The translations under genes were made by a program, and so were the position numbers. From Nannocystis bainbridge (GTDB lineage: Bacteria > Myxococcota_A > Polyangia > Nannocystales > Nannocystaceae): a stretch of DNA of 64,000 nt. Every line of letters starts with the position of its first letter. Within the stretch, counting starts at the first letter, position 1. The notes below the pieces were generated by a model, which was not told the DNA's origin, searched no databases, and was given only the letters and a program-made list of their open reading frames with translations. The stretch covers positions 128,001-192,000 of the forward strand of contig NZ_JAQNDL010000004.1 in the NCBI RefSeq assembly GCF_028368995.1, read 5' to 3'. Below, piece by piece: positions 8,171-57,052 of this stretch.

Positions 8171-8974
8171 ATGGCTGAGCCCGGAACAGCGAGCGCGGCG
8201 CGCGTCCGCCAGGAAGCGAAGGGTCGCGAGCTGCTGGCCGATTCGGGCGTGCTGTGGAGCGCGCTGCCGGTGGAGTGGCCGCGCGAGGCAGAGGGCGGGT
8301 CGGCCGCGGCGCTGCCCGGGTGGGGCTGGCGGGTGCGTCGCTCGCTGGCGGCGCTGCTGGTGCGGCCGCGACGAAGCTTTCAACACGTCCATGAGCCGGT
8401 CGACCACGGAGCGGCGCTGCGGCTGCTGCTGACGGTGCGCTTGCCGTTGTGGGCGGCGCTGCTGGTCGCGCTGGGTGTTGCAGGCCCGACAGGCGCGGCG
8501 CTGGAGGGGATCCCGCTGTTCGACGCGCACCTGACCGAGGCGCTGTCGCTGTGGTTGTTGCTGATGGTGCCGGTCGGGGTGCCGCTGCTTTACGCGAGCC
8601 TGGGGGTCGCCACGCACGTGGCGCTGGCGCTGACCGGCGGGGCGCCGCGCTCGGTGGCGGCGACGATGCGGGCGGTCGGCTACGCGGTGGCGCCGGCGCT
8701 GCTCGGGGTGGCGCTGCTCGACCTGCCGCTGTTCCTCGGGGTGCTGCCGCTGGCGGCGTACCTCGGAGGGCTCGGGGCGCTGACGCTGCTGACGTTCGTG
8801 GTCGCCGGCAACGCGCTGACCGGGACCCACCAGATCCCGGCGATCCGCGGGTTCGTGGTGGCGCTGGTGCCGGCGGTGATGTTCGCGGCGACGCAGGTGC
8901 TGCGCGGGGTGCTGGCGCTCGGCGAGCTGCCGGGCTATGCGCCGCCGCCGGGGCTGCCGTACCTGGTGCCGTGA
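8171..8974 (+). CDS. Yip1-like polytopic membrane protein
   Basis: Five hydrophobic segments follow a soluble N-region. Start chosen at ATG 8171 (MAEPGT), downstream of the overlapping minus-strand MTase gene. Confidence 0.55.
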   Translation: MAEPGTASAARVRQEAKGRELLADSGVLWSALPVEWPREAEGGSAAALPGWGWRVRRSLAALLVRPRRSFQHVHEPVDHGAALRLLLTVRLPLWAALLVALGVAGPTGAALEGIPLFDAHLTEALSLWLLLMVPVGVPLLYASLGVATHVALALTGGAPRSVAATMRAVGYAVAPALLGVALLDLPLFLGVLPLAAYLGGLGALTLLTFVVAGNALTGTHQIPAIRGFVVALVPAVMFAATQVLRGVLALGELPGYAPPPGLPYLVP

Positions 8975-9882: not shown

Positions 9883-9966
9883 GCCTCGAGTCGCATCGCG
9901 CGGTTCGTGGCGGGCGGGCCTCGATTCGCATCGCGCGGTTCGTGGCGGGCGGGCCTCGATGTGGGG
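9883..9966. repeat. 35-bp tandem direct repeat, about 2.4 copies, in a divergent promoter region
   Basis: gcctcgagtcgcatcgcgcggttcgtggcgggcgg | gcctcgattcgcatcgcgcggttcgtggcgggcgg | gcctcgatgtgggg. Confidence 0.7.
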
Positions 9967-10084
9967 ACCCGGCGGCTCACGCGGGCGATCGCGGGGCTGC
10001 CCCCTTCACGGACACAGCGGTCTCGACGGGTCGGCGCCCGACGATCTCGACGCGACGGTGGACGCGCGGCAGATATTGTGGGGC

Positions 10085-15772: not shown

Positions 15773-15900
15773 GTGTCCTCGCGGACATGTCCGGAGGGGC
15801 ATGTTTGCGGGGGCATGTTCGTTCGGGCATGTCTGTTCGGGCATGTCCGTGCGAGCATGTGAGACCACGCGCCGATCGGCTATGCTCGCGGGCATGTTCG
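15773..15900. repeat. GGCATGT(C/T) tandem array (about 7 units) between pmbA and the acetyltransferase
   Basis: gcggacatgtccggaggggcatgtttgcgggggcatgttcgttcgggcatgtctgttcgggcatgtccgtgcgagcatgtgagacc ... gggcatgttcgtg. Confidence 0.85.
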
Positions 15901-17340: not shown

Positions 17341-17460
17341 GGGCGTGTCCGCGAGGACATGAGGGGGAGGTGCGAAAGGACATGTCGTGGTGGACATGTC
17401 GTGATAGACATGTCGTGATGAACATGCCTGATAGGGCATGTCTGAGAAGACGTTCTCGTG
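17341..17460. repeat. GGACATGTCG tandem array (about 7 units, 14-bp period)
   Basis: aggacatgaggggg|aggtgcgaa|aggacatgtcgtggt|ggacatgtcgtgat|agacatgtcgtgat|gaacatgcctgat|agggcatgtctgag. Confidence 0.85.
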
Positions 17461-17475
17461 ACGATGCGTTCTGCG

Positions 17476-17800
17476 GCCGGGGGCGGGCGGCTTCACGGCT
17501 CGCCGAGACCGAGCCTGGCGGATTCTTCCGGGCAGGCGAAGCGGCGAAGGGGACGGCTTCACGACTCTCGGGGCCGGGCCTGGCTGAATCTTCGGCAGCT
17601 GAAGCGGGCGAAGCGGGCGGCTTCACGGCTCGGCGCCGGGCCTGGCGGGTTCGTCGGGCACGCGAAGCGGCTGACTTCACGGCTCGGTGGGGCCGGGCCT
17701 GGCGTTCTACGGCCGGGCGGAGCGGGCGACTTCACGGCTCGGCGGGGCTGGTCCTTGCGGGTTCGTCCGGGCAGGCGAAGCGGGCGAAGCGGCGGGTGAG
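17476..17800. repeat. degenerate 58-66 bp tandem direct repeat, 5 copies, spanning the 3' end of the sigma/anti-sigma gene and its downstream region
   Basis: Units begin cttcacggctcgg(c/t)g...ggccgggcctggcg...gcgaagcgggcga at about 17478, 17541, 17607, 17664 and 17722. Confidence 0.65.
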
Positions 17801-19033
17801 CACCGAGTCGGGCAGGCGGGCGGTCAGGCGGGCGGCGGCGGCGGCGGCGTCGGCCGGGCGGCCTTGCAGGCACAGCAGCTCGATCGCGGCGGCCTCGCGG
17901 GCGTCGACGAGGGCGCCGCGCGGGAACTCGCGGGCGTGGCTGTCGAGCAGCAGGGCGGCGGCGGTCGGGTCGCGGGCGTCGAGGCGAGCGCGGGCGCGGT
18001 CGAGCAGGCCGACCTCGCGGGCGAGGTCGTCGCGGGCCCGCGCGCGGGCGGCTGGCCCGGGGGACAGGTCGGATCCCGTGGCTGTCCCTGCGGACAGGTC
18101 TCGCGCGGCTGTCTCTGCGGACAGGTCTCGCGCGGCTATCTCTGCGGACAGGTTCGACGCTGCTGTCTCTTCGGACAGGTCGGAGGGCGCAGGGTCCTTC
18201 GCGGCGGGCTCGTGGGCACGGTCCTTCGCGTCTGTCTCGTGGGACAGGTCCGAGCGCGCCGGGGCGCCGCGGCCGGGGGCCTGGCGCGGGGCGGCGACGA
18301 CGACCGCGGCGGTCCCGGCGACCAGGAGGGTCGTCATCACCCCGGTGCGGGCGGCGGTCCAGGCGGCGGCGACGGTGGCGAGCTTGCCGTGGCCGAACAG
18401 CGGGACGATCGCGGCCCAGTTGCGCGGGGCGGCCTCGGGCGGGGGCTCGGCGCGGCGGCGGTCGGCGGCGATCTCGGCGACCAGCGGCTCGGGGCCGGCG
18501 GCCAGCTCGAGCAGGCGGGCGCGGGCCAGGCGGAGCCGCGAGTAGACGGTGTTGAGCGGCAGCTCGAGCTCGGCGGCGATCTCGGGGCCGTTCATGCCGA
18601 GCAGCTCGGTCATCTCCCACACCTCGCGGGCGCCGCGGGGCAGGCCGGCGAGCAGGCGCTCGACCTGGCGGGCGGCGTCGTGGCGCTCGTGCGGGGCCTC
18701 GCCGACGTGGCCGGTGAGGTCGCCGAGAGCGGCGATCCGGCGGGTGCGGCGGGCGACGCCGCGGTGCCAGTGCGAGGCGACGCGGCGGGTGACGCCGTAC
18801 AGCCAGGCGCGCGCGGACACCTGGTAGTGGACCTGCTCGAAGCGGCGGTAGGCGGTGAGGAAGACGTCCTGGATCACGTCGTCGCGGGCGGCCGCCGGGA
18901 CGCCGAAGTAGCGGGCGGCGGACCAGACGAAGTTGAACTCGCGGTCGTAGATGGCGCGGAAGCGCGCTTCGCGGTCGGTGGCGAGCAGCATGGGGCCGGA
19001 GGTGGTGTCCCCGGTCGAGATGGATTCCGTCAT
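17732..19033 (-). CDS. ECF sigma factor fused to a C-terminal TM segment and an anti-sigma-like periplasmic domain with 9-aa tandem repeats
   Basis: Sigma-70 region 2 (FRAIYDREFNFVWSAARYFG...DDVIQDVFLTAYRRF) and region 4 (EVWEMTELLGMNGPEIAAELELPLNTVYSRLRLAR), then TM TTLLVAGTAAVVVAAP, then (DLSAETAAR)n encoded by 27-bp repeats at 18050-18250, then a helical C-domain. Start ATG 19031-19033 with GGAGA 9 nt upstream. The Arg/Pro-rich N-terminal extension in the ORF track was rejected. Confidence 0.7.
   Translation of the reverse strand: MTESISTGDTTSGPMLLATDREARFRAIYDREFNFVWSAARYFGVPAAARDDVIQDVFLTAYRRFEQVHYQVSARAWLYGVTRRVASHWHRGVARRTRRIAALGDLTGHVGEAPHERHDAARQVERLLAGLPRGAREVWEMTELLGMNGPEIAAELELPLNTVYSRLRLARARLLELAAGPEPLVAEIAADRRRAEPPPEAAPRNWAAIVPLFGHGKLATVAAAWTAARTGVMTTLLVAGTAAVVVAAPRQAPGRGAPARSDLSHETDAKDRAHEPAAKDPAPSDLSEETAASNLSAEIAARDLSAETAARDLSAGTATGSDLSPGPAARARARDDLAREVGLLDRARARLDARDPTAAALLLDSHAREFPRGALVDAREAAAIELLCLQGRPADAAAAAARLTARLPDSVLTRRFARFACPDEPARTSPAEP
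18050..18250. repeat. 27-bp coding tandem repeat (ctgcggacaggtctcgcgcggctgtct)n inside the sigma/anti-sigma CDS; a CATG-less variant of the GGACATGTCC family
   Basis: About 6 copies, each holding GGACAGGTC and its inverted partner GCTGTC. It translates on the minus strand to S/DLSAETAAR repeats. Confidence 0.75.
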
Positions 19034-25633: not shown

Positions 25634-26020
25634 CTACTCCTTGATGAGCTCTTCGTACTGCTCGGCGGTCAGCAGGCGCTCGAACGCGGCCGCGTCGGTC
25701 GGACGGATCTTGACCATCCAGCCGTCGCCGTAGGGGTCGGTGTTGACGTCCTCGGGGGAGGCGTCGAGCTCGCCGTTGACCTCGACCACCTCGCCGTCGA
25801 GCGGGGCGTACAGCTCGCTGACAGCCTTGACCGAGTCGACCGTGCCGAACTCCTGGCCCGCGGTGAGCTGGGTGCCGCCGGTCGGGAGGGTGACGAGGGT
25901 GACGTCGCCGAGGGTGTTGCTCGCGTGCTCGGTGATGCCGACGACGATGGAGCCGTCATTCTCGAGGCGGGCCCACTCGTGGTCTTTGGTGTAGCGGAGG
26001 TTGCTCGGGATCTTGCTCAT
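25634..26020 (-). CDS. gcvH: glycine cleavage system H protein
   Basis: Lipoyl-lysine context TVDSVKAVSELYAP...; full-length 128 aa. Confidence 0.93.
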   Translation of the reverse strand: MSKIPSNLRYTKDHEWARLENDGSIVVGITEHASNTLGDVTLVTLPTGGTQLTAGQEFGTVDSVKAVSELYAPLDGEVVEVNGELDASPEDVNTDPYGDGWMVKIRPTDAAAFERLLTAEQYEELIKE

Positions 26021-26100
26021 GGTGAATCTCGGGACAGGTTGTCGGAGACAGGTGCTTCGGGACAGGCGCTTCGGGACAGGTTCTCGAGGACAGGCGAGAG
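26021..26100. repeat. TCGGGACAGGnnnn 14-bp tandem array (5 units), the CATG-less variant, in the gcvT-gcvH intergenic space
   Basis: tcgggacaggttg|tcggagacaggtgc|ttcgggacaggcgc|ttcgggacaggttc|tcgaggacaggcga. Confidence 0.85.
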
Positions 26101-26101
26101 A

Positions 26102-27217
<1,116 letters not shown>

Positions 27218-28432: not shown

Positions 28433-28500
28433 GGGACATGTCGTGGCGGGCATGTCCGATGCGGCATGTTCGAGTGGACATGTTCGATGGGACATGGCCT
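28433..28500. repeat. GGACATGT(C/T) tandem array (5 units) abutting the left inverted-repeat arm
   Basis: gggacatgtcgtggcgggcatgtccgatgcggcatgttcgagtggacatgttcgatgggacatgg. Confidence 0.85.
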
Positions 28501-28532
28501 GGACTGCGGGTGCGCGGCGACGGGTGCCCGTC

Positions 28533-28880
28533 GAGGAAATCGCGCGGCCGAGGACGCGGGGCCTGGAGAGCTGGGTGACGGCGGGCACGGCCTGTCCAGG
28601 AAATCGTGCGGCCGAGGACGCGGGGCCTGGAGAGCTGGGTGACGGCGGGCACGGAGCGGCGGAGCGGGTCCCTCGCCACGGCGGGGCCCTCCCAGGCAAC
28701 GTGCTCGGCGCCCTCGGGCTTCGATGGTGTTCTGTCTCTTGAGACAGGTGTGTGTGCTTCGCGGACGATGGCGCCTGCGCGCGGTTGCCTGCGGCCCCTC
28801 CCGCCTGCGTCCCACTCCGCCGCTCCGTGCCCGCCTGAGGAGAGCGTCGCCGGCCCCGCTTGTCGCCCCGCGAGTTCGTT
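28533..28880. repeat. left arm of a long imperfect inverted repeat; contains 2 tandem 57-bp sub-repeats
   Basis: gaaatcgcgcggccgaggacgcggggcctggagagctgggtgacggcgggcacggcctgtccag occurs twice. The reverse complement of 28790-28880 matches 29715-29800 with only a few mismatches. Confidence 0.75.
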
Positions 28881-28918
28881 GCAACGCATGGCGCGGGTAG
28901 CCGCCGTTCCACCCGGCG

Positions 28919-29612
28919 ATGATGACCGCGCGGCTCCTGGACGCGTACTCGCAGGGCGTGTTCTCGTCGTGGAAGAGCGAGCCGCGGGTCGACTTCATAG
29001 CCGTGACGGCGCGCCAGCGATCGGCCCACCGTACGATCGACGACTTTCGCCGCCGGCACCTGGCAGTCCTCGGCGGTCTCTTCGGACAGGTGCTCGAGCC
29101 AGGCCAGCGCGCCGGGCCGGTGAGGCTCGGACACGTCGCGCTCGACGGACGAAGATCAAGCGAACGCCTCGAAGCACAGGCGATTTAGCTGCGCGCGGAT
29201 GAAGGAGGTCGAGCCGGAGCTCGCGGCCAAAGGCCGGCGCGCTGGTTTGCCGAGGCCGACGACATCGATCGCCGCGAGGACGACCGGCACGCTGATGCTC
29301 GCGGCGACGAGATACCGGCATGGGTGCAGAGCAAGCAGGAGCGCCTGGCGAAGAGCCACGCGGCGATGGCGGCCCTCGAGGCCGAGGCTGCCGCCGAAGC
29401 CGCTGGCCGTGAAAAGGACCGGCGCGCCGCCGAGGAGTCCAGGGCGCGCGACGAGGCGCGGCCGATGCCCACGGGTCGAGACCTCGTCACATAGCCGATG
29501 GGACACCTTCCGAAAGTCGCAGCGCAACTTCGCCGATCCTGAGAGCAAGCTGATGATGACTACGGACGGCTTCGTACAGGGCTACGACGCCCAGGCCGTG
29601 CCTCACAGATGA
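28919..29612 (+). mobile_element. IS1182/IS5-like transposase remnant (frameshifted, truncated) between the inverted-repeat arms
   Basis: SSWKSEPRVDFIAVTARQRSAHRTIDDFRRRHLAVLGGLFGQVLEPGQRAGPVRLGHVALDG resembles the transposase N-domain (YSSRKLE...DFRKRHL...LF.QVL...LGHVALDG). A second frame has DPESKLMMTTDGFVQGYDAQAV, matching the block that opens the DDE domain (DP-x-A/S-R/K-L-M...GF.QGYNAQ). Total coding capacity is well under half a transposase. Confidence 0.45.
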
Positions 29613-29714
29613 TTATCGCCGAGATGGTGATCCGCGAGCAGAACGACTTCCAGGTGCTCACAACCTGCGAAAGAGAGTGTCCACAGTCGGTCGAGCCGCA
29701 CTCGCCGCTGCTCG

Positions 29715-30160
29715 GTGAGGCTCCCCGCGCGGCGACGAGCGGGGCCGGCGACGCTCTCCGCAGGCGGGCTCGGAGCGGCGGAGTGGGACGCAGGCGGGAG
29801 GGGCCGCAGGCGACCGCGCGCAGGCGCCATCGTCCGCCAAACACACCCACCTGTCTCAAGAGACAGAACACCATCGAAGCCCGAGGGCGCCGAGCACGTT
29901 GCCTGGGAGGGCCCCGCCGTGGCGAGGGACCCGCTCCGCTGCTCCGTGCTCGCCGTCACCCAGCTCTCCAGGCCCCGCGCCTTCGGTTGCGCGATTTCCT
30001 GGACAGGCCGTGCTCGCCTCTCCAGGCCCCGCGTCCTCGGTTGCGCGATTTCCTGGACAGGCCGTGCCCGCCGTCACCCCGCGTCCTCGGTTGCGCGATT
30101 TCCTGGACAGGCCGTGCCCGCCGTCACCCAGCTCTCCAGGCCCCGCGTCTTCGGACGCAT
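29715..30160. repeat. right arm of the long inverted repeat; contains 3 tandem 57-bp sub-repeats (gtcctcggttgcgcgatttcctggacaggccgtgcccgccgtcacc)
   Basis: Reverse-complementary to the left arm across about 350 bp, including ...cggagcggcggagtgggacgcaggcgggaggggccgcagg... The arm ends 14 bp before the stop of the flanking gene. Confidence 0.75.
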
Positions 30161-32080: not shown

Positions 32081-34057
32081 TCACTTGCCGCCGACCGCGG
32101 CCTCGAGCTCGGCGAGCTCGTGGGAGAAGCCGCCCGAGAGGATCGGGAAGCGGCACCCCGTCTTCGGGTCGAGGTTCTGGTCGTCGAGGTGGAAGCTCGG
32201 GGCGTAGCGCTCGCGCTTCCACTGGTTCTGGCTCCACAGGCGGAAGAACCGCTTGACCCACAGGAGTAGCTGGGCGCGGCCGTGCTCGGGGTAGCGGCTG
32301 GCGAGGACGCGGAAGACGTCCTTGGGCGTGAGCTTGTCGCGGATGGCGGCGCGCTCGATGACGTCGAGGATCGGGTACGGCATCAGGTCGTCCTCGTCGG
32401 TCTGATGGGCGCTGGCGGGCCGCAGCTCGGCGGTCGGGGCCTGGACGTTGACGGCGCTCAGCTCGGGGGTAGGGCCGACGCCGGCGGGGCCTTCGAGCTC
32501 GACCCACCGCAGCCACTGGCGCAGGAAGGCCTTGTCGATGCCGGCGATCGGCGACAGGCCGCCGCAGGTGTCGCCGTCCATGGTGGCGTAGCCGACGGCG
32601 GCCTCGCTGCGGTTGCTGGTGGCCAGCAGGAGGGCGCCGCGCAGGTTGGCCAGCAGCCACACGCCGGGGGCGCGGGCGCGGGCCTGGATGTTCTGCAGGG
32701 CGATGTCGTCGCCCTTCCAGCCGAGCTCGCGGCCGATCGCGCCCTCGACCGTGCGCACGTAGGCGCGCACGAGCGGGTCGACGTCGAACTCGAGGAACTC
32801 GGCGCCGACGGCCCCGGCGACGGCGCGGGCGGCGTTGCGCGTGGTGTCGGAGCTGTTGTGCGTCGACTGATAGACGCAGGTGAGCAGCGAGCCCACGATC
32901 GCCCGCGTGGTGGTGCAGGTGCCCTCGGCCAGGCCGAGGCGGGCGCAGGTGGCCTCGACGCCGAGCTCCTGCACGGCGAGGGTGACCATGAGGTGCACGA
33001 GGTAGGCGACGGCGGCCGAGTCGGCGCCGCCGCTGAGCGAGACGACGAAGCCGCGCGACCGGCTCTTGCGCAGGTAGTCGAACAGGCCGAGAGCGACGGC
33101 CCGCGAGAACTCCTCGCGCTTGTCGCCGGGCCACGGCGGGGTCGGCAGCGGCTGGTGCGGCGGCAGGTCGGCGACCGGCAGCTGCATCTCGAAGCGGGTG
33201 ATCCGGCGCAGGTGGTCGTCGACGGTCGGGGCGGCGGTCCGGCTGGCGTGGATCATGCGCGCGAGGTCGACGTCGATCACGGCGCTGGTGAGGTAGACGT
33301 CGTCGTAACCGAGCCGCGGGCCCTCGGCGATGAGGTGGCCGGAGGCGGCGATCATGCACTCGCCGTCGTAGATGACGCGGCCGGCCTCGTTGCCGATGAA
33401 GTTGGAGTAGACGTAGGTGGCGCCGAAGCTGCGCGAGGCGCCGATGACGATCTGCTTGCGCACCTCGTGCTTGCCGAACGCGAAGTGGCTGGCGCTCGGG
33501 TTGCAGATGACGTCGACGCCCTGGGCGGCGAGCTCGACGCCGGGGCGGTTCGGGACCCACGCGTCCTCGCAGATCTCGAAGCCGATCCGCAGGCCGCCGA
33601 CCTCGAAGATCTGGTCGCCCAGCGGGTAGCTGTGGCCGTCGTGCTCCCACTGCACGAACTTGCCGGCCGGCCAGCCCTTGAACCACCGCGGCTCGTAATG
33701 GATGCCGTCACCGGCGAGGAAGCGCTTGCCGACCAGGCCGACGATCTGGCCGTCGGCGACCAGGCAGACGGCGTTGTAGTTGGCGGCGCGGTGCATGATC
33801 GGGACGCCGAGGGCGACGATCATGCCCTTCGTCTCGGGCAGCAGCTCTTGCAAGATCCGCCACGATTCGAGCACGGTGCCGCGGCTGAAGAACGCGTCCT
33901 CGCAGCCGTAGCCGGGGATGCAGAGCTCGGGCAGGCACAGCACGGCGACGCCCTGCTGGCGGGCCAGGCGGATCGCCTCGAGGATCCGGGCCTGGTTGCC
34001 GTCCCAGTCGAGCGGCGTCTGGTTGAGGGCGGCGGCGGCGACGCGGACGAGGTGCAT
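32081..34057 (-). CDS. nadE: glutamine-dependent NAD+ synthetase (nitrilase-like domain plus NadE domain)
   Basis: N-terminal CN-hydrolase domain (LCLPELCIPGYGCED, catalytic E/K/C) and C-terminal SGGADS P-loop (VSLSGGADSAAV). Confidence 0.9.
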   Translation of the reverse strand: MHLVRVAAAALNQTPLDWDGNQARILEAIRLARQQGVAVLCLPELCIPGYGCEDAFFSRGTVLESWRILQELLPETKGMIVALGVPIMHRAANYNAVCLVADGQIVGLVGKRFLAGDGIHYEPRWFKGWPAGKFVQWEHDGHSYPLGDQIFEVGGLRIGFEICEDAWVPNRPGVELAAQGVDVICNPSASHFAFGKHEVRKQIVIGASRSFGATYVYSNFIGNEAGRVIYDGECMIAASGHLIAEGPRLGYDDVYLTSAVIDVDLARMIHASRTAAPTVDDHLRRITRFEMQLPVADLPPHQPLPTPPWPGDKREEFSRAVALGLFDYLRKSRSRGFVVSLSGGADSAAVAYLVHLMVTLAVQELGVEATCARLGLAEGTCTTTRAIVGSLLTCVYQSTHNSSDTTRNAARAVAGAVGAEFLEFDVDPLVRAYVRTVEGAIGRELGWKGDDIALQNIQARARAPGVWLLANLRGALLLATSNRSEAAVGYATMDGDTCGGLSPIAGIDKAFLRQWLRWVELEGPAGVGPTPELSAVNVQAPTAELRPASAHQTDEDDLMPYPILDVIERAAIRDKLTPKDVFRVLASRYPEHGRAQLLLWVKRFFRLWSQNQWKRERYAPSFHLDDQNLDPKTGCRFPILSGGFSHELAELEAAVGGK

Positions 34058-35027: not shown

Positions 35028-36892
35028 GCGGGGGAGGAAGAGTACCCCTCGGCGAGCGCGTTGGCGACCTCGGTATAGGCGTAATCGCTGACGCGTTCGT
35101 CGATGCGCATGCGCAGCAGCGCCTTGCTGCGGCAGGCGGCGGCGAAGAAGAACGCGCGATCGTCGGCGCAGGCGCGCGCGAGCGCGGGGACGGCGGCCCA
35201 GCGATCGAACAGGCGCTGGCAGATCCGCCGCACGCACGGCCACAGCTCGGCCTGGTCGGGCCCGCCGGCGTCTTCGATCCAGGCGATGACGGCGGCGAGG
35301 TGGGCGTGCACGAGGGTGTGGAGCAGCTTGCCCTGGGCCTCGGCGAGGTCGGCGGTGAGGGTGAAGGAGTCGGAGGCGAGCGCGGGTGCGTGACCGGCGG
35401 CGGCGAGCCGGCCGCGGTGGAGCCGGATGCCGCCGAGGTCGCGCACGATGAAGCCGCAGGGGCGGCCGGCGTGGACGAGCAGGGTGTTCTGCAGGTGGGC
35501 CTCGAGGGCGACGCCGTGGGCGGTCAAGAGGCGCAGGGCCGGCGGGACGAGGACTTCGAGGTAGTCGCTGAAGAAAGCGGCGAGGCGGGCGCGCAGGTCG
35601 CCGGGGTAGTCGGCGGCGAGCTCGCGCACGAGGAGGTCGCCGCCGGGGCGGCGCTCGCCGAGCGCGGCGCAGACGAGGAGCTGCGGGCTGCGCGAGGGGA
35701 CATGTCCGTGAGGGAAGGTCCTCGGGGACATGTCGTCGGGGGCATGTCCGGAGGGGAATGTCTCAAGGGACATGTCGGCGGGGCGGGACGGAGCGAGGCG
35801 CGGGTCGGCTGTCGCGAGGGACAGGTCGGCGTGGAGGTCGCGGGCGAGGGCGGCGGGGTCGGGGCGCAGCACGACGCCGAGCTGGCCGGCGCGGTCGCCG
35901 TGGCGCGGGTGCATGCCGGCGGCGGCCACGTCGGCCTGGATCCGCAGGCCGCGGCGCGTCTCGGGATCGGCGGCCTGGATCGCGGCCAGCAGGGCGGCGA
36001 TCGGCGGGCCGTTGTGGACCGAGGCGGGCGAGACCTGGCGGCGCGCGCTGGTGGTGTGGATGTCGACGGCGAGCTTGAGGTGCAGGGCCGGGGCGGCGAG
36101 GGCGACGGTGCGCAGGCTCAGGAGGGCGCGGGCGGGCAGCGGGGGCAGGTCGACGGGGTGGGCGACGCTGCGCCACAGCGGGCCGAGCAGGCGCGGCAGG
36201 CGGCGCAGCTGGAGGGCGTGCACGGGCAGGCGGACCAGGCCGGCGGGCGCGGGCGGGAACAGCTCGCGGGCGAGGTCGGCGTAGAGGTCGGGCGCGGCGA
36301 GCTGGGCGTGGTCGGCGGCGAGGTCGACGGCGTGCACGGGGGCCTGGGCCAGCAAGTCGGGGCCGTGGCGCAGGTTCTCCCAGGCGCGCAGGCCGAGCCG
36401 GGTCTTGCTCATCGGGTGCCAGGGGTGACCGTCGACGACGAGGTTCTCGGGGTCGAGCGGGGCGGGCCACGCCTGGCCTTCGGAGCATGTCCGATGGCGC
36501 AGGTCGGCGACGAGGCGGGCGAGGGCGAGGTTCCAGCGGCTGTCGTCGAGCTCGCGGGCGAGCCGGGCGCGGGGGGCCGGGGCGAGCGCGGGTAAGAGGC
36601 GCGGGAGGAGCTGGGGGAGGTCGGGCAGGTCGCTGGCTTCGAGGTCGGGGGCGTGGAGCTCAAAGGCGCGGCGGCGTCGCAGCGGGAGACTCAAGGAACA
36701 TGTGCGAAGGGACATGTCCTGAAGGTCAAAGGCGAGGAGCCGCTCGCGGGCGCAGGCGAGGAGCAGGCGGGCGCCGATGGCCTGGGTGGCGGCGCGCCAG
36801 TGACAGGCGAGGTCGGCGGGCTCGGGCCGGACGCGGAAGGCGAGGGGGAGGGCCCGGGCGGCGAAGGCGAAGAAGCGGTCGCGCTCGGGCAC
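35024..36892 (-). CDS. IucA/IucC-family (NRPS-independent siderophore synthetase-like) protein with FhuF-like C-terminal domain; carries in-frame GGACATGTCC repeat insertions
   Basis: [28 protein letters not shown] (S-x-R-T/R ATP loop) and [10 protein letters not shown] (H-x-Q-N) resemble NIS-synthetase motifs. The repeat arrays at 35696-35830 and 36692-36725 lie inside the reading frame (peptides [27 protein letters not shown] and DMSLRTCS). The true start is uncertain. Confidence 0.45.
35696..35830. repeat. GGACATGTC tandem array (about 7 units) lying in-frame inside the IucA/IucC-like CDS
   Basis: gggacatgtccgtgagggaaggtcctcggggacatgtcgtcgggggcatgtccggaggggaatgtctcaagggacatgtcggcgggg...gggacaggtcggc. 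Confidence 0.85.
36692..36725. repeat. GAACATGTG/GGACATGTCC repeat pair within the 5' region of the same ORF
   Basis: aggaacatgtgcgaagggacatgtcctgaaggtc. Confidence 0.7.
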
Positions 36893-37048: not shown

Positions 37049-37756
37049 TCAGCCGGCGCGCCAGTGGGCCACGGCGAGCTCGCCGAGCATGAGGGTGGCG
37101 GACAGGAGGAGGACGGCGGCGATCCAGCGGCGCAGGCTGTCGGGGTCGAGGCTGCCGGTGCGGCGGGCGCCGAGGTTGGCGCCGAGCAGGGTGAGCGGGG
37201 TGACGATGGCGAAGGCGGTGAGGTCGACCTGTCCTTGGAGGAAGGTGGCGACGCCGGCCGACAGCCCGGTGACGGCGCCGATCGCCATGTTGGTGCCGAT
37301 GGCCACGGGCGGGGCGACGCGGGCGTAGCGGATCATGGCGGGCAGGCGCAGGCTGCCGAGCAGGAGGCCGACGAGGCCGGAGATCGCGCCGAGCACGGCG
37401 CCGACGACGACCTCGGCGAGGACGGCGAAGGTGCGCGAAGGGACATGTCCGGAAGGACTGGTCGGATCGGGCGGGCGGCGCAGCATGCTGGCGCCGGTGA
37501 GCAGGAGGACGCCGGCGATGACGGCCTTGAGCAGGCGCGCGTCGACGCTGCCGGCCCAGCGAGCGGTGGCGAAGGCGGCGAGGGCGGAGGGGAGGCCGAC
37601 GCTGGCGAGCAGCCACAGGTCGACGCGGCCGTCACGGGCGTGCCGCCAGGTGCCGGTGAGGGTGCCGGCGGTGGAGATGGCGAGGCTGGTGGCGGCGCCG
37701 GCGACCGGGCTGCCGAGGACGTAGACGAGGAGGGCGACCCGCAGCTGGCCGAGCAC
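37049..37756 (-). CDS. TauE/SafE-family sulfite/anion exporter membrane protein; GTG start as tracked, but a hydrophobic helix is encoded in-frame upstream without a canonical start
   Basis: Two 3-4 TM halves separated by a loop that contains an in-frame GGACATGTCC repeat (RRPPDPTSPSGHVPSRTF). Upstream in-frame codons encode EILALALIALVSFGLSYIGATVGLV after a TAG at about 37846. Confidence 0.65.
   Translation of the reverse strand: MLGQLRVALLVYVLGSPVAGAATSLAISTAGTLTGTWRHARDGRVDLWLLASVGLPSALAAFATARWAGSVDARLLKAVIAGVLLLTGASMLRRPPDPTSPSGHVPSRTFAVLAEVVVGAVLGAISGLVGLLLGSLRLPAMIRYARVAPPVAIGTNMAIGAVTGLSAGVATFLQGQVDLTAFAIVTPLTLLGANLGARRTGSLDPDSLRRWIAAVLLLSATLMLGELAVAHWRAG
37436..37465. repeat. GGACATGTCC repeat unit pair in-frame inside the TauE central loop
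   Basis: gcgaagggacatgtccggaaggactggtcg. Confidence 0.8.
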
Positions 37757-38430
37757 GAGCCCGACGGTGGCGCCGATGTAGCTGAGGCCGAAGGAGACCA
37801 GCGCAATGAGCGCTAGCGCGAGGATCTCGGTGGAGCGCAGGCGCCGACGCTAACACGCGTGACGGGGGAGTGAGCCTGGAGGGATCGCCGCGCGGTGGCG
37901 CGAGGGCGCGCGGTCGCGGAGGACCACGAGAGAGGTGGTGCGGGGGCGATGCGTGAGGGGGCCGCTGCGAGGGCTCGGTGATGCTCTCGCGCGGTGCTGT
38001 CTCGCGGATGCGGCGGCGATCGCAGGGGACGAGTCGACGGCGATGGCCGGGCAGTTCGAGGCAAAGTGGGTGGCACACGCGGCGCGGCGATGTTGGCGAG
38101 GGCCTCGCTGTCGCGGTGTCGATGGCCGCGTCGCGGATGTGGCGGGGATGGTGCTGGTGGCGGTCCGGCGAGTCGTGGCGATGCTGCCCTGCGTGTCGGA
38201 TGGTTTGCGAGGCGCGAGCGATCGCTTCGTCGGGCCTCGGGCGTGCGGGCTGTCGGAGGGCCGCGAGGATCGGCGGTGTGAACGTGAAGGTTCGTTCATC
38301 ACGGTGCGCTGGGTCGGACGGTGATGGTCGGCTCGAGTCGGCGAAGGTGTCGCGGGCGAAGGTGTCGCGGGCGAAAGGCGGGGCGGCGCTTGACAGGCGG
38401 GCGGGCCGGGGCGGACGCTGCGGCGGCGTG

Positions 38431-39216
38431 ATGGAGCGCGGGGACACGACGGCGGCGGAGGCGCTCGCAACGGGGCTTCCGGGGTCGCCGCGGCCGCGCT
38501 GGGTGGTGATTCACTGGACGCTCGAGGCGCTGGGGCTGGTGCGCGCGATCGCGGCGGCCGACGGCTCGCCGGAGCTGACGCTGATCGGGCCGGCGGCCGC
38601 GGACGAGGTCGCGGGGGCGCTGGCCGAATTGCCCGAAGGACATGTCCACAAGTACTGGCAGGGCTCGGCGAGCGGCGGGGTCGAGGCGCTGGCGCGCTTC
38701 TTCGCCGAGACGGCCGGGCTGCCGGCGGCCGACGCGATCATCGTGCTGCCGCTGCGCGGGCACGGCGAGACCGACGCGTTCTCGCGCCTGGTGTGCACGG
38801 CGATCCAGCGGGCCTGCAAGGGCAAGCCGCCGCACGTGGTGGTGGCGGTCGAGGACCCGGAGGCGACCCACGAGTTCGAGGGGCTCGGGGTGGCGACGAT
38901 CTTCTATCCGGGCTTCCTGCGCGCGGCGCTGCTGGCCCACGCGTGCGTCGATCTGGGGGCGTTCCGCTTCATGCTGGCGCTGCTCGGCGGGCGCCTGCGG
39001 GTCGAGACCTGGCCGGTGCCGCCGGAGCTGCGGGCGGGGACGTTCCGCGAGGCGTGCCTCGGGGTGGAGGTCGATCGCCGCGGGCGGCCGGTGACGCTGA
39101 TCGGGCTGTTCGCGCCGGCCGAGGGCGGGCAGGACTCGATGCTGCTGAGCCCGCCGCCGGGCCGTGCGCTGCGCGACGCGAGCGCGCTGCTGGTGCTGAC
39201 GGGAGAGGCCGAGTGA
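38431..39216 (+). CDS. stand-alone RCK (TrkA-N/TrkA-C-like) regulatory protein
   Basis: Rossmann-like alternation (RWVVIHWTLEALGLVRAIAA...DAIIVLPLRG...HVVVAVEDPEA) followed by a small beta domain. Sits immediately upstream of the channel gene. Weak SD. Confidence 0.4.
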   Translation: MERGDTTAAEALATGLPGSPRPRWVVIHWTLEALGLVRAIAAADGSPELTLIGPAAADEVAGALAELPEGHVHKYWQGSASGGVEALARFFAETAGLPAADAIIVLPLRGHGETDAFSRLVCTAIQRACKGKPPHVVVAVEDPEATHEFEGLGVATIFYPGFLRAALLAHACVDLGAFRFMLALLGGRLRVETWPVPPELRAGTFREACLGVEVDRRGRPVTLIGLFAPAEGGQDSMLLSPPPGRALRDASALLVLTGEAE

Positions 39217-39330
39217 GGCGAGGGGCGCGTGCGGCCCGCGCGGGGGGCACGATCGGCAGCGCTGCCGGCGAGGCGGAGCGGGTCTTCGGCGAGGCGGCCG
39301 CTGTGACGCGGCTCGCAGGAGGATCTGGCT

Positions 39331-39400
39331 TTTGGGGCATGTCCGTGCGGACATGGCTGATCGGGCCTGTACTCCTGGGCATGTTCCTGCAGACAGGTGC
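39331..39400. repeat. GGGCATGTCC-type repeat units overlapping the start codon and signal peptide of the channel gene
   Basis: ggggcATGtccgtgcggacatggctgatcgggcctgtactcctgggcatgttcctgcagacaggtgcc. The ATG of the CDS is the CATG of a repeat core. Confidence 0.6.
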
Positions 39401-41663
39401 CGCGCGGGCCGGCGAGCCGATCACGATCCGGTTCGGGTCGGGGGCCAAGAAGGGCGGGTTCGACGTGACCGCCCACGCGCTGGCCGAGGTGGTGCGCGGC
39501 GAGGGGCGAGTGACGATCGCGCCGGAGTCGACGCGGGGCTCGTGCGAGAACGTGCACAAGCTGCTGTCGGGCGAGCTCGACGCGGCGCTGGTGCAGTACG
39601 ACGTGGCGGCCGAGGCGTTCAAGGCCGGGCAGGCCGACGCGGCGGCGGTCGACAGCAAGACGCCGCGCGGCGGGTGGATGTGCAAGCTGTCGCCCGAGGA
39701 GGCCGACAAGGCGGAGCTGCGGGTGATCGCGGCGGTGTCCGACGCGGCGGTGCACGTGCTGGTGCGCCGGCCGGTGCGCCTCGACGAGTTCACCGACATC
39801 GGCCGCGAGCCGCTGTTCATGGGCAAGGACGGGTCGGGCAGCTACGAGACGGCGAAGGTGATCCTCGGCGCGGCCGGGCACACGGCGGAGCATCTGCCGC
39901 TGTTCATGGGCACCGCCGACGAGGCGCTGGCGGCGATGAGCCGGCGCGAGCTGCTGACGATGCTGCGGACCACCGAGCCCGGGCACGCGGAGATCGGCGC
40001 GGTGCTGGCGTCGGGCCTGGCGACCCTGAACCCGCTGCCGGAGGAGGTGCTGAACCGGCTGATCGACGGCTATCCGTATTACCGGATCTGCCCGATCGAG
40101 CCCGGGACCTACGCGGGGCTCGAGTTCAGCATCCCGACGGTGTGCGTGAGCTCGGTGGTGCTGGTGGCGACGCCGCGCCAGCGGCTGGACGACGAGGGCT
40201 TTTTGGCCGACCGCCGGCTCGCGGTCGAGGCGATGATCGTCGGGCTGCAGAAGCTGGCGCGCGAGGAGCAGCACGCGAGCCTCGGGGTCCGCGTCGAGTG
40301 GCGCGGGTTCGCCGAGCGCGAGCCGATCCCGCTGCACCCGGTGGCGGAGGTGCACGAGACCCGCGAGCGGCGGACGGCGTGGCTGCAGGCAGGGGCGGCC
40401 GCGGCGGCGCTGGCGGTGGTGCTGCACCTGGTGCGCCGGGCGCTGCGGCGGCGGCGGGTCCCGGGGGCCGGGATCGAGACCCAGCTGTCGAACCCGCTGG
40501 TGCCGTTCGCGGCGTTCGCGTGCGTGGTGACGCTCTCGACGTTCATCGTCTGGTCTTTGGAACATGACTCGAACGCCAGGTTGCGGACGCTGAACGACTC
40601 GTTCTGGGAGATGAACACGTTCGCCACCGGCAACTTCACCACCGAGACGCTGAAGACGCCGACGGCGCGGGTGGTCGGGGCGGCGGCGACGATCCTCGGG
40701 CTGGGGCTGCTGGCGTGGTTCACGGCGACGCTCACCAACATCTTCGCGCAGGAGCAGACGCGGCTGTGGCGGCGGCTGAACCGGCACCTGGTGGTGCTGA
40801 ACTTCCGCGAGGACATGCTGCCGCTGATCCGGCTGCTGCGCAGCCCGGGGCCGACGCGCCACCGGCCGCTGCACGTGGTGGTGTCCGACGCGCTGCCGCG
40901 GCGCGTGCGGCTGCAGCTGGCGCGGGTCAAGGCGCTGACGATCCACAACGCCAACCCCGAGGTGCCGGAGGACCTGGCGGGGCTGCGGCTGCCGCGGGCG
41001 TCGCGGGTGATCGTGCTCGGCGACGGCGAGGCGGCGGGGGCCAGCTACGATCCGCTGCGGATCGCCCGCGCGGTCCATCAGGCGTGCGCGCGCGACCCGA
41101 TCGGCGGCGGGCAACGGGCGCGGCCGCTCGGGGTGGCGGCGACTTCGGTCGAGATCGCCCGGACCGCGCCGGCGCTGCCGGTGACGCTGGTCGAGACGTC
41201 GGAGGGCGAGCGCGACGAGGTGTTCTCGCCGTTCGCGGCCTGGCTGGTGCCGGTCGACTGCCAGACGCTGGCGCACCGCTGGCTGGTGATGGCCTGCCGC
41301 GACCGCGCGTTCGCGGAGCTGTTCAACCGGGTGGTCGCGTTCGCCGACGACAACGCCGAGGTCTACACGGCGACGGCTCCGACCTGGCTCATCGGACAGC
41401 CGTGGCGATCGGTCCGCCGCGCGCTGCTCGAGGTCCAGGGGCGCGGGGGCGCGGTGCCCCTGGGGCTGTATCGCACCGCCGATCCGGGCGGCAAGACGCC
41501 GGTGGGCGGGACCTCGCACGCGGAGCTGCGGCGGCGGCTGATCGTCAATCCGCGGCCGGACGAGCCGGTGGCGCCGGGCGACCTGATCGTCGCGCTGTGC
41601 GAGGATGAGGCGGACCTGGTGCGCATCGTCGCCGAGAGCCGCAAGGCCGTGCCGATCGGCTGA
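39339..41663 (+). CDS. TAXI-type solute-binding domain fused to a 2-TM ion-channel pore and tandem RCK domains
   Basis: Signal MSVRTWLIGPVLLGMFLQTGAARA. TAXI-like blocks (ITIRFGSGAKKGGFDVTAHALAEVV...SCENVHKLLSGELDAALVQYDVAAEA...FMGKDGSGSYETAKVILGAAG), then TM1, pore helix plus filter FWEMNTFATGNFTTE, then TM2, then two RCK-like domains (HLVVLNFRED..., RVIVLGDGEAAG...). Confidence 0.6.
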   Translation: MSVRTWLIGPVLLGMFLQTGAARAGEPITIRFGSGAKKGGFDVTAHALAEVVRGEGRVTIAPESTRGSCENVHKLLSGELDAALVQYDVAAEAFKAGQADAAAVDSKTPRGGWMCKLSPEEADKAELRVIAAVSDAAVHVLVRRPVRLDEFTDIGREPLFMGKDGSGSYETAKVILGAAGHTAEHLPLFMGTADEALAAMSRRELLTMLRTTEPGHAEIGAVLASGLATLNPLPEEVLNRLIDGYPYYRICPIEPGTYAGLEFSIPTVCVSSVVLVATPRQRLDDEGFLADRRLAVEAMIVGLQKLAREEQHASLGVRVEWRGFAEREPIPLHPVAEVHETRERRTAWLQAGAAAAALAVVLHLVRRALRRRRVPGAGIETQLSNPLVPFAAFACVVTLSTFIVWSLEHDSNARLRTLNDSFWEMNTFATGNFTTETLKTPTARVVGAAATILGLGLLAWFTATLTNIFAQEQTRLWRRLNRHLVVLNFREDMLPLIRLLRSPGPTRHRPLHVVVSDALPRRVRLQLARVKALTIHNANPEVPEDLAGLRLPRASRVIVLGDGEAAGASYDPLRIARAVHQACARDPIGGGQRARPLGVAATSVEIARTAPALPVTLVETSEGERDEVFSPFAAWLVPVDCQTLAHRWLVMACRDRAFAELFNRVVAFADDNAEVYTATAPTWLIGQPWRSVRRALLEVQGRGGAVPLGLYRTADPGGKTPVGGTSHAELRRRLIVNPRPDEPVAPGDLIVALCEDEADLVRIVAESRKAVPIG

Positions 41664-42979: not shown

Positions 42980-43033
42980 CGGGACATGCTCTCCAGGACA
43001 TGCTCGGACGGGCATGTCCTATTGAGCATGTGC
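42980..43033. repeat. GGACATGCTC/GGCATGTCC tandem array between convergent genes
   Basis: gggacatgctctccaggacatgctcggacgggcatgtcctattgagcatgtgcg. Confidence 0.8.
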
Positions 43034-52464: not shown

Positions 52465-52541
52465 CTGTCCGTTCGGGCATGCGCGAACAGACAGGTCCTC
52501 CGGGACATGCCCCATGCGGCATGTCCCCGGGGGCATGTCAG
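52465..52541. repeat. GGGCATGC/GGACATGCCC/GGCATGTCC tandem array between convergent genes
   Basis: ctgtccgttcgggcatgcgcgaacagacaggtcctccgggacatgccccatgcggcatgtccccgggggcatgtcag. Confidence 0.85.
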
Positions 52542-53491
52542 TCGGGGTTGGCCTTGCGCCAGCGCTCGTACTCCTTGAGGTCGACGTCGCAGACCTTGGC
52601 GTACTCGCCGGTGACCTGCTTGCGCTCGTAGGCGCGGTCGCTGTCGGCGCGGTTCTGGCCCTCGCGCAGGGCCTCGAGGGCCTCGAGCACGTTGCGGAAG
52701 TAGATCCACCGCTTGGGCTGCTCGGCGGTCGGCGGCGGGGTGCCGTTGCAGTAGCGGCCCAGCCAGGCGTGGGCCTCTTCGACCTTGCCCTGCTCGCGCA
52801 GGGCGGTGGGCATGGCGGGCAGGCAGCTCTGCATCATCAGCGTGACGCGGTCGGGGCCGCGGGCCTGCTCGGCGAGGCAGCGCTCGCTGAAGCGGGCGTG
52901 GTCGCCGGCGAGGAAGGCGTCGCGCACGTAGGTGTCGCGCTCGAACTCGGAGCGCGACGGCTGGGCGCGGTCGCAGGCGTACATGTCGACGAAGACCTTC
53001 TTGGCGCCCTCGGGGCACGGGACCTCGTACAGGTCGATGACGTGGCCGTCCTTGTTGGGGCCGACGTTGCCGCGGCGGGCCTTCATGCCGCTGGGGATGT
53101 CGCCGTCGAACGGGCGGGTGCCGTCCTCGCACTCGCTGTCGGCGACGGCCACGTAGGAGCCGGTGGTGCCGCAGGCGGCGATCGGGCGGTCCTTGGACGA
53201 GCCCGGCGGGCCGGCCGGCGCGGTGGTTTCGGGGGCGCGCACGTCGCCGATCCGCGGGCGATCGCCGGCGCGGGCGTCGTGGCCGGGCCGCGGACCGCCG
53301 GGGTTGGCGAAGGCGCCGGAGGAGGAGGTCTTGAGGTCGAACGGCGAGGCGCCGGCATCGGAGCCGGGGCCGGCGATCGGGGTGCCAAAGGCGCCTGACT
53401 CGGTCGCTGCGGGGACCCTGGGCCGGCCCGACGTGGTGGTCTTGCAGGCGAACAGGCCGGCGAGGGCGAGGAGCAGGAGCGGACGGCGCAT
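52538..53491 (-). CDS. hypothetical lipoprotein (LFAC lipobox)
   Basis: MRRPLLLLALAGLFAC at ATG 53489-53491; the upstream part of the 492-aa track ORF is Arg-rich artefact. Confidence 0.55.
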   Translation of the reverse strand: MRRPLLLLALAGLFACKTTTSGRPRVPAATESGAFGTPIAGPGSDAGASPFDLKTSSSGAFANPGGPRPGHDARAGDRPRIGDVRAPETTAPAGPPGSSKDRPIAACGTTGSYVAVADSECEDGTRPFDGDIPSGMKARRGNVGPNKDGHVIDLYEVPCPEGAKKVFVDMYACDRAQPSRSEFERDTYVRDAFLAGDHARFSERCLAEQARGPDRVTLMMQSCLPAMPTALREQGKVEEAHAWLGRYCNGTPPPTAEQPKRWIYFRNVLEALEALREGQNRADSDRAYERKQVTGEYAKVCDVDLKEYERWRKANPD

Positions 53492-55751: not shown

Positions 55752-55808
55752 AGGGACATGTCCCCCGGGACCTGCCCTCAAGGGCATGGCTCCGGGGACA
55801 TGTCCGAT
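55752..55808. repeat. GGGACATGTCCCCCGGGAC / GGGGACATGTCC array overlapping the 3' end of the methyltransferase CDS
   Basis: agggacatgtcccccgggacctgccctcaagggcatggctccggggacatgtccgat. Confidence 0.85.
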
Positions 55809-57052
55809 AGATCCTCTTCGACGCTGAAGTAGCGGAACCCGCCGCCGCCGGTCCAGCCGGCGGCCGCGGTGACGCCGCTCGGATCGCGGCCGTCGACGAC
55901 GGCGCGCAGGCGGGCGGCGACGAGGCCCTCGCAGTGCTCGCCGCGCTCGACGAGGATCCACGGGCGCCGCAGCTTGTGGGCGACGGCGCCGGTGGTGCCC
56001 GAGCCGGCGTAGACGTCGAGGACCCAGTCGCCCGGCCGGGTCGAGAGCTCGAGCACGCGCCGCAGCAGGGCCTCGGGCTTCTTGCCCTTGGGGAAGGCGA
56101 CGCCGCCCTCGGCGTGCAGGTTGTTCGAGAGCAGGTCGTCCCAGATGGTGGTGAGCGGCTCGCCGGCGATCCGCTGGCCGTCGATGAGCTTGAGCTTGGC
56201 GGCGTAGAAGAGGATCCGCTCGCCGCGCACGAAGTAGAAGTCGTCGTGGTCGTCGCGCTCGAGGCGGTGGACGACGTCGGGCTCGGCCTTGCTGCGATCG
56301 ATCATGGCCCGCGCGGCGGCGCTGACGGCGTTGTAGTCGGGCCGCGCGAGGCGGACGACGGCGTCGGCGCGGGCCAGCACGAACTCGTCGAGGCGCGCCG
56401 GCTCGGCCCGCGCCAGCCGCTGGGCGGCGCGCTCGCCCAGGCCGCAGGCGTCGGCGAAGGCGCGCAGCAGGCTGACGAGCCGCCACTCGCGGAAGGGGGC
56501 GGCGCGGTCGACGATGAACTGGGCGTACCGGGGGTCGCGCTCGCGGGCGGTGTAGAGCCGCTGCGGGGCCCAGTGCGCGCGGTCGCGGGCGTAGATCAGG
56601 ACGAAGTTGGAGGTGCTGACGCAGCCGGGGTTGATCGCCTTGTGGCCGGTCGGAGCGCCCTGCTTGAAGGTGACGACGGCGGCCCGGTTGGCGCGGCCGA
56701 AGATGTCGTCGAGCAGGACGATCAGGTAGCCGAGCTCGTTGTCGTCGATGTGCACGAACAGGGTGCCGTCGGCGGCGAGCAGCCGGCGCAGGACCTCGAG
56801 GCGGGCGCGCATGTCGGCGAGCCAGCGCGCGTGCTCGATGCCGTCGTCGTAGTGGGCGAAGGCGCGGCCGGTGTTGTACGGCGGGTCGATGTAGACGCAG
56901 CGGATCCGCCCGGCGAACTCGGGCTCGAGCGCGCGCAAGGCGTCGAGGTTGTCGCCGCGGATCAGGCGGTTGTCGTAGAGGTCACCCGCGACCGCGGGGC
57001 CGGCCGCGCGGTGCGACAGCGCGGGCTGCTCGACCAGGCGGCGCGGGTCCAC
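55778..57052 (-). CDS. beta-class DNA (N6-adenine or N4-cytosine) methyltransferase, orphan
   Basis: Motif IV IDPPYN comes before motif I VYAGSGTTGAVA (beta-class order); no restriction-endonuclease-like neighbour. The last 9 codons (SDMSPEPCP) derive from the repeat array. Confidence 0.8.
   Translation of the reverse strand: MDPRRLVEQPALSHRAAGPAVAGDLYDNRLIRGDNLDALRALEPEFAGRIRCVYIDPPYNTGRAFAHYDDGIEHARWLADMRARLEVLRRLLAADGTLFVHIDDNELGYLIVLLDDIFGRANRAAVVTFKQGAPTGHKAINPGCVSTSNFVLIYARDRAHWAPQRLYTARERDPRYAQFIVDRAAPFREWRLVSLLRAFADACGLGERAAQRLARAEPARLDEFVLARADAVVRLARPDYNAVSAAARAMIDRSKAEPDVVHRLERDDHDDFYFVRGERILFYAAKLKLIDGQRIAGEPLTTIWDDLLSNNLHAEGGVAFPKGKKPEALLRRVLELSTRPGDWVLDVYAGSGTTGAVAHKLRRPWILVERGEHCEGLVAARLRAVVDGRDPSGVTAAAGWTGGGGFRYFSVEEDLSDMSPEPCP

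Follow-up and report, generated by a model that had tools for sequence, protein, structure and literature searches.

The question raised by this locus is where the start codon and export signal of a putative channel gene came from. An earlier note, made from the letters of the window (the whole stretch of 64,000 nucleotides of Nannocystis bainbridge DNA that was analysed; G+C 72%), had proposed that both are written in repeat sequence, either through exaptation of a repeat array as a 5' coding segment or through a promoter-proximal binding array that happens to overlap the translation start. The parts of the junction that bear on this proposal are as follows.

38430..39216, forward strand: conserved upstream gene without a Pfam match, recognised by synteny and ending in GTGA (39213-39216)
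39217..39334, forward strand: spacer of 118 nt from the upstream stop to the array, containing AGGAGG
39335..39404, forward strand: five-unit array of a 14-bp repeat in in-phase register, lying almost wholly within the 5' end of the channel ORF
39339..39341, forward strand: predicted initiator ATG, positions 5-7 of unit 1, within its CATG core
39339..39410, forward strand: predicted signal-peptide coding segment, MSVRTWLIGPVLLGMFLQTGAARA, delimited by translation, hydropathy and orthologue leaders
39339..41663, forward strand: putative channel gene, 774 aa, with signal peptide, TAXI domain, membrane region and RCK-like tail

The start of the upstream gene was placed at 38430 from its 262-aa N. 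exedens orthologue. A repeat-like segment is indeed present at the start of the channel ORF, but where three units had been claimed there are five, in strict 14-bp register (39335-39404).

39335, forward strand: unit 1, GGGCATGTCC
39349, forward strand: unit 2, GGACATGGCT
39363, forward strand: unit 3, GGGCCTGTAC
39377, forward strand: unit 4, GGGCATGTTC
39391, forward strand: unit 5, AGACAGGTGC

Scored with a weight matrix trained on 68 units, all from other, intergenic arrays, the five units together reach 47.6 bits, the tenth best locus of the window, against a maximum of 7.8 bits across 200 first-order Markov windows of 64 kb each. Their cores score 14.7, 11.1, 4.2, 13.2 and 7.1 bits in order (median of intergenic units, 12.4). 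Units 1 and 2 contain an exact 18-bp palindrome, CATGTCC-GTGC-GGACATG (39338-39355), and with as many as two mismatches permitted, this pattern has 48 occurrences in the 64-kb window, where shuffles lead one to expect 0.17. The cores of the array depart from the consensus at eight positions, and as read off the sequence seven of these eight changes alter a residue, mostly to a hydrophobic or small one (C>W, P>L, S>F, C>G, P>A, H>P). The segment at 39335-39404 belongs, in partly decayed form, to a family of tandem 14-bp palindromic repeats (GGRCATGYCC + N4) that is specific to Nannocystis.

The unit of this family is a 10-bp palindrome, GGRCATGYCC, followed by a 4-nt spacer to give the 14-bp period; in the weight matrix most of the core information lies in CATG, and the spacer is nearly free. 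The window holds 91 units in 26 arrays of two to seven in-phase units, where block-shuffled sequence gives roughly one unit in an entire window, and the density of 1.42 units/kb is similar in N. exedens (1.48) and N. pusilla (1.57). It declines with distance, being about 0.5/kb in the clade whose channel orthologues are 73-78% identical, 0.1-0.3/kb in loci L021 and L024 (orthologues about 62% identical), 0.67/kb in L022 (59%) and at background in Nannocystaceae strain ST9 (L023). Array positions and unit counts are largely common to the window and N. exedens, and the arrays are therefore old and stable, not hypervariable.

A strict three-unit pattern was found in 15 stretches in the genomes of 185,579 species, 14 of them Nannocystis (exedens, pusilla, radixulma, RBIL2 and one MAG), and the family appears to be essentially specific to the genus. 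The sole match elsewhere, on a Nocardiopsis contig (L019, 7373-7415), was rejected as a member: it is an isolated perfect triplication of CGGGCATGTCCGGG just past a stop codon, not a dispersed family. Nor did anything in a raw count of four two-unit matches among 2.9 million viral contigs point to a phage origin of the repeat. An Rfam scan of the whole window at gathering thresholds returned no matching family, and no description of a palindromic or REP-like repeat in Nannocystis or other myxobacteria was found in the literature. A sub-family with a non-palindromic core, GGACAGGT(C/G), was also seen: as a 14-bp array at 26029-26094 that fills the gap 26020-26102, as an array of 27-bp period at 18080-18181, and as an in-phase run at the channel junction of the MAG locus L022 (about 9936-10057).

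Among asymmetric units read on the forward strand, GGGCATGTCC outnumbers GGACATGCCC by 27 to 8; the ratio is 7:0 after forward-strand genes and 5:4 after reverse-strand genes, so that gene direction is not cleanly tracked. Selection at the RNA level was considered as a reading of this bias, for which the strong G+T skew of the strand may instead be the source. GC skew is positive in almost all 2-kb bins of the window, reaching +0.28, and about two thirds of the window's genes lie on the minus strand. Skew and unit bias alike may reflect mutation bias of the replication strand and not selection.

The placement of the arrays relative to genes is informative about what kind of element they are. 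On a GC3-based gene map that leaves 14% of the window non-coding, 66 of the 91 units lie within that 14%. Of the gaps between genes, 7 of 9 convergent and 12 of 23 tandem ones hold arrays, and the 9 divergent ones hold none (Fisher p = 0.002). For 14 arrays a stop codon lies no more than 27 nt from one end, and three arrays extend over it. In the N. exedens and N. pusilla loci (L001 and L002), which were annotated independently, each of the four convergent gaps has an array and each of the five divergent gaps lacks one. The family is a REP/BIME-like element of gene 3' ends, as opposed to a promoter or operator array. Operators would be expected to cluster in promoter regions, yet neither the nine divergent gaps here nor the five of L001 and L002 contain an array, and most convergent gaps, in which promoters are not to be expected, do; the promoter-proximal binding array that the earlier note had offered as its second explanation finds no support.

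Several details of the gene ends may be recorded here. Array units overlap or run past stops at 8972-8974, 32081-32083, 52538-52540 and 55778-55805; the stop of the minus-strand gene at 52538-53491 is the TCA of a unit GGGCATGTCA, and the last codons and stop of the gene at 55778-57052 lie within units at 55768-55805. Two gene starts on CATG cores that the rough gene map suggested, at 17360 and 20205 (both minus strand), were rejected because recognisable proteins begin well downstream and the arrays there are intergenic. Tandem repeats at 17483-17787 (periods of 62 and 55 bp, about three copies each) adjoin the arrays at 17341-17443 and are unrelated in sequence to the 14-bp family. Longer tandem-repeat blocks at 28496-28654 and 29964-30129 (periods of 64 and 50/54 bp), whose consensus units are mutual reverse complements, enclose a stretch of about 1.3 kb (28655-29963) within a large gap whose neighbouring genes converge; this segment and its flanking repeats could be mobile or invertible.

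As expected of palindromes in series, the arrays are predicted to fold. Five intergenic arrays give -34.7 to -63.9 kcal/mol (z = -3.1 to -8.5) as long nested hairpins, and two of them are typical.

42982..43033, no strand assigned: four-unit array forming one long hairpin (-34.7 kcal/mol, z = -5.6), lying in the convergent gap between genes ending at 42927 (forward strand) and 43036 (minus strand)
15783..15862, no strand assigned: six-unit array (-63.9 kcal/mol, z = -8.5), beginning 17 nt past the stop of a gene that ends at 15766

Compensatory pairing between units looked promising in the array at 42982 and was not borne out over 12 intergenic arrays, which fold no better than random assemblies of family units (mean z = -0.59); we therefore make no claim of covariation. 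A U-tract after the hairpin, the mark of an intrinsic terminator, was seen neither at the channel junction nor in the arrays read, and the arrays may terminate transcription without one.

We turn to what the array at 39335 would encode. The protein is 90% identical to its N. exedens counterpart and 87% to that of N. pusilla. Residues 47-336 match the Pfam family NMT1_3 (PF16868, E = 9.8e-23), which identifies a TAXI domain. The C-terminal half matches the KvAP pore region weakly (E = 0.007), with Lig_chan (E = 0.02) and TrkA_C (E = 0.083) both below Pfam cut-offs, and the designation as a channel gene, which the earlier note had taken for granted, is therefore plausible and not established. 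Just before the conserved motif GEP..RFGSG that begins the TAXI domain stands the leader MSVRTWLIGPVLLGMFLQTGAARA, with Arg4 in its n-region, a hydrophobic core TWLIGPVLLGMFL (Kyte-Doolittle means over 11 residues reach 2.4) and A-R-A ahead of the motif; judged by rule on charge, hydropathy and small residues at -3 and -1, it has the properties of a Sec-type signal peptide. The same peptide is conserved in N. exedens and N. pusilla.

Five of its 24 codons end in A or T (ACA, CCT, GTA, ACA, GGT), against 2.7% of codons in the rest of the gene (binomial p = 3.8e-4), and ACA and CCT recur in N. exedens and N. pusilla. In its composition the leader thus follows the repeat and not the remainder of the gene.

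The ATG of unit 1 presumably serves as the initiator. It is present also in N. exedens, N. pusilla and L004. Upstream of it in the window are in-frame GTG codons at 39303 and at 39213, the latter in the old GTGA overlap; that GTGA is in frame in N. exedens and L004 as well and out of frame in N. pusilla, which leaves the unit-1 ATG as the only start common to the close relatives. Were either GTG used, the leader could be longer, and the array would still be coding while the claim of an initiator in the CATG core would fail. AGGAGG stands at 39317-39322, 16 nt before the ATG, and no conserved Shine-Dalgarno motif was found across the junction loci compared. In all 70 orthologues inspected, repeat-free ones included, a leader precedes GEP..RFGSG; most leaders span 23-54 residues, and the handful below that length look like the product of truncated gene models. 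Translation must therefore begin within the array or ahead of it, and whichever start is used, the array would be coding.

Comparison of orthologous loci is the most direct guide to how this came about. The upstream gene adjoins the channel gene in every orthologous locus (L001-L005, L021-L024) and probably encodes a protein that partners the channel from the cytoplasm. In four of the nine other loci (L003, L005, L023, L024) the stop of the upstream gene and the start of the channel gene overlap, as ATGA or GTGA, and overlap is the ancestral arrangement. The spacer that follows the upstream stop differs from lineage to lineage: N. exedens has 29 nt and N. pusilla 181 nt, and L003, L005, L024 and L023, with their overlap, have 0 nt. 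The outgroup L023 (ST9; 63% GC) has no arrays, an ATGA overlap and an unrelated leader, MSARRGLAALALVIAALLG. In L024, L003 and L005 the overlap is retained and repeat units follow directly; the L024 junction reads ATG-AGACATGTCC-tgaa-GGTCATGTGC and yields MRHVLKVMC.

Eight further Nannocystis-clade loci (L001-L005, L021, L022, L024) carry in-phase arrays at the junction, among them L022 with nine in-phase matches of a variant core, GGACAGGTC, from -65 to +47 across the junction. Sub-clades read the junction array in different frames, as MS/F-x-RTW, MRRTW or MRHVLK. The three frames of the unit give the signatures [RG]T[CW], DM[SLCF] and [GR]HV, which appear in 19 of 108 leaders, all 19 among the 40 closest orthologues; outside the leaders of the same proteins they occur at 0-0.12 per 30 residues. 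Slots 1, 2 and 4 are strong and slots 3 and 5 decayed in the window, N. exedens and N. pusilla, while slot 3 is a perfect GGACATGTCC in L005 and the decayed GGGCCTGTAC in the window. That different slots are well kept in different lineages is the outcome expected of independent decay of one ancestral array. Comparison of N-termini, which the earlier note had named as a way to check its proposal, found repeat-coded leaders within the Nannocystis clade and an unrelated one in the repeat-free outgroup, and exaptation of the array as a 5' coding segment is supported by that leader, by the clade-wide junction arrays and by frames that differ between sub-clades.

The channel leader stands as a repeat-coded segment, as had been proposed, but it is not a lone case, for an IucA/IucC-family siderophore-synthetase gene in the same window translates the same units.

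35698..35783, minus strand: six units in frame in the IucA/IucC-family gene (29 residues), identified by alignment to relatives

This insert varies between species and is shorter in the relatives; in the window it exceeds the N. exedens version by 21 residues, and L003 and L005 have almost none of it. Two further repeat sites lie in the same gene (36696-36719 and 36483-36506), and a CAP-domain gene carries two units at 42159. In a TauE-family gene on the minus strand, two repeat-like units at 37441-37464 encode ...SGHVPSRTF... in a central linker; this site was examined as an insertion and rejected, the linker being equally long in relatives that lack the repeat, so that not every intragenic unit is an insertion.

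Three other explanations of the junction are improbable in varying degree. A chance resemblance, an ordinary signal peptide mimicking the repeat, could appeal to the low information content of signal peptides and to nothing further; it is effectively refuted by 47.6 bits in exact 14-bp register (null maximum 7.8), by repeat-type rare codons in the leader and by the arrays that eight further loci of the clade have at this junction. We regard it as very improbable that the array is non-coding, a 5' leader or intercistronic element with the true start farther downstream. Most family members are indeed non-coding, an in-frame GTG exists at 39345, and the ATG of unit 4 at 39381 is in frame with 39339 because three units make 42 bp; against this, initiation at 39381 leaves MFLQTGAARA, too short for a signal peptide, the TAXI domain must lie outside the cell, all 70 orthologues inspected carry a leader before GEP..RFGSG, and N. 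exedens and N. pusilla conserve the leader peptide. A protein-binding cluster, operator or promoter-proximal, that controls channel transcription and overlaps the start by chance would suit the unit well. Its core is a sequence-specific 10-bp palindrome in which the CATG centre is conserved, its spacers are free, and a dimeric DNA-binding protein would recognise just such a site; that the DNA is bound by a protein is conceivable. The distribution of the family speaks against it, with arrays absent from the divergent gaps of the window, L001 and L002, present in most convergent gaps, placed directly after stops and found inside coding regions. A consensus scan of the junction for a sigma-70-like promoter or U-tract terminator also returned nothing, a scan that is weak and uninformative in a genome of 72% GC. 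On balance we hold such a cluster to be quite improbable.

Greater weight might be given to translational control, in which the array is kept for RNA hairpins that hide the AUG. Channel synthesis would then depend on the opening of these hairpins, whether by ribosomes that come in from the upstream gene or, say, by a bound factor, and coding use would be secondary. The AUG lies in unit 1, which is predicted to pair in the RNA with either unit 4 or unit 2, and the start codon would therefore fall within a stem. That stem is predicted at about 12 bp in the window (units 1 and 4 paired, units 2 and 3 paired; z = -2.3) and again in N. pusilla (z = -3.65), the strong slots 1, 2 and 4 are shared by all three species while slots 3 and 5 decay, and the upstream and channel genes are anciently coupled. 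In N. exedens, on the other hand, unit 1 is predicted to pair with unit 2 instead, in a fold no better than shuffles (z = -0.59); the channel-start array reaches -26.0 kcal/mol where random assemblies of family units reach -33.7, a poorer fold, compensatory changes were looked for and none were seen, and the pairing partners are largely lost in L003 and L005. As the principal reason for the array, translational control seems to us unlikely; it is compatible with exaptation as coding sequence and could be an addition to it.

Exaptation is the account that we consider likely: an array landed behind the upstream stop, within the 5' end of a coupled channel gene, and was taken up there as start codon and signal peptide. 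The order of events that we infer begins with an ancestor in which the channel start overlapped the stop of the upstream gene (ATGA or GTGA) and the two would have been translationally coupled. REP/BIME-like arrays would settle directly behind stop codons, and because of the overlap, one that settled behind this stop would have fallen within the first codons of the channel ORF. A signal peptide needs charge, hydrophobicity and an A-x-A site, and no specific sequence. The array might be tolerated for that reason, and because the consensus core contains no stop codon in any frame and the period of 14, being 2 modulo 3, lets successive CATG cores offer ATG in all three frames; it would then have been kept and shaped as the new leader. 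Its arrival at the junction may have been an insertion or a gradual overprinting. In the window species and its close relatives, translation would now begin at the ATG of unit 1, and units 1-5 would encode a signal peptide that, from its composition, is expected to direct export.

A broader reading can be envisioned, in which the arrays, far from being inert remnants, form the cis component of a system peculiar to Nannocystis: a dedicated protein, perhaps a domesticated transposase or a sequence-specific DNA- or RNA-binding factor, would recognise GGRCATGYCC and place or maintain arrays behind stops as gene-end punctuation. With units that lack stops and present an ATG in each frame, the family would also be a recurrent source of coding sequence. 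We think this possible, if doubtful. Were it true, the channel leader, read in different frames in sister clades, would be its clearest case of coding recruitment.

If start mapping bears out the unit-1 ATG, exaptation at this locus would offer a clean, datable bacterial case of a repeat becoming start codon and export signal, with the repeat-free outgroup as the "before" state and the sister clades as different choices of frame. Beyond this one gene, Nannocystis carries a dense repeat of its own that marks gene ends and that the searchable literature does not appear to describe. The family also matters in practice because spurious ORFs and misplaced start codons arise from it, as in the public models of L022 and L021 and in many MSxRTCP ORFs of the window. 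The L022 gene model (start at 10001) carries a 17-residue repeat-coded extension ahead of the canonical leader. The last unit there, GGACATGGCG, holds an in-frame ATG that would give that leader, MAGSGSRRWSGWLVAGLVLL. In L021, where units lie just upstream of the called start (10001), an in-frame ATG at 9974 would give MRHVPRARVM..., as in relatives. Both public starts look wrong, and the repeat seems to mislead start-codon calling.

How the family relates to known repeats of bacterial genomes can now be considered. REP elements are located at gene 3' ends and between co-oriented genes. The Nannocystis repeats share that placement, in 3'-end and tandem positions and not in gaps that would hold promoters only, together with a palindrome that forms a stable hairpin and many dispersed, mainly extragenic copies. 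In enterobacteria and pseudomonads, REP, BIME and REPIN elements are described as short palindromic hairpin units, overwhelmingly extragenic, often clustered in tandem, lineage-specific and inherited vertically at the same sites in related species (PMC3337134, PMC3116915). Ours are likewise palindromic, hairpin-forming, extragenic, clustered in tandem and lineage-specific, and they persist at the same sites. They differ in architecture, for a REP is an imperfect palindrome of about 20 nt arranged in inverted doublets, whereas the Nannocystis unit is a perfect 10-bp palindrome repeated head-to-tail every 14 bp. Set beside REPINs, the units again run head-to-tail with a fixed 14-bp period, and since the core is its own reverse complement, the orientation of a unit cannot be defined. 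A further difference from REP is that roughly one unit in four falls within a coding region and is translated.

Mycobacterial MIRUs are intercistronic tandem repeats in operons that touch both the upstream stop and the downstream start, and the array at the channel junction resembles them in lying between operon genes at just these positions. MIRU units are 40-100 bp long and not palindromic, and their small ORFs bridge genes and are not known to form the N-terminal part of the protein encoded downstream.

Rickettsia palindromic elements (RPEs) and other intragenic MITEs are known as in-frame fusions within ORFs (PMC10969869), and here too a palindromic family stands in frame within conserved ORFs, in the IucA/IucC loop and in the channel leader, with the host protein intact (the mature channel protein is 90% identical to that of N. 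exedens). RPEs are about 150 bp long and encode a conserved peptide; the Nannocystis elements are arrays of two to seven 14-bp units that can be read in any of three frames (RTW/RTC, DMS, GHV/RHV), not discrete elements of 100-150 bp. They also differ from RPEs in what they provide, a likely start codon and export signal instead of an internal insert, and the review of intragenic MITEs and RPEs makes no mention of a signal peptide (PMC10969869). With the start used as proposed, the locus would illustrate the conversion of repeat DNA into functional coding sequence, through a repeat array that probably furnishes both the start codon and the signal peptide of the channel gene.
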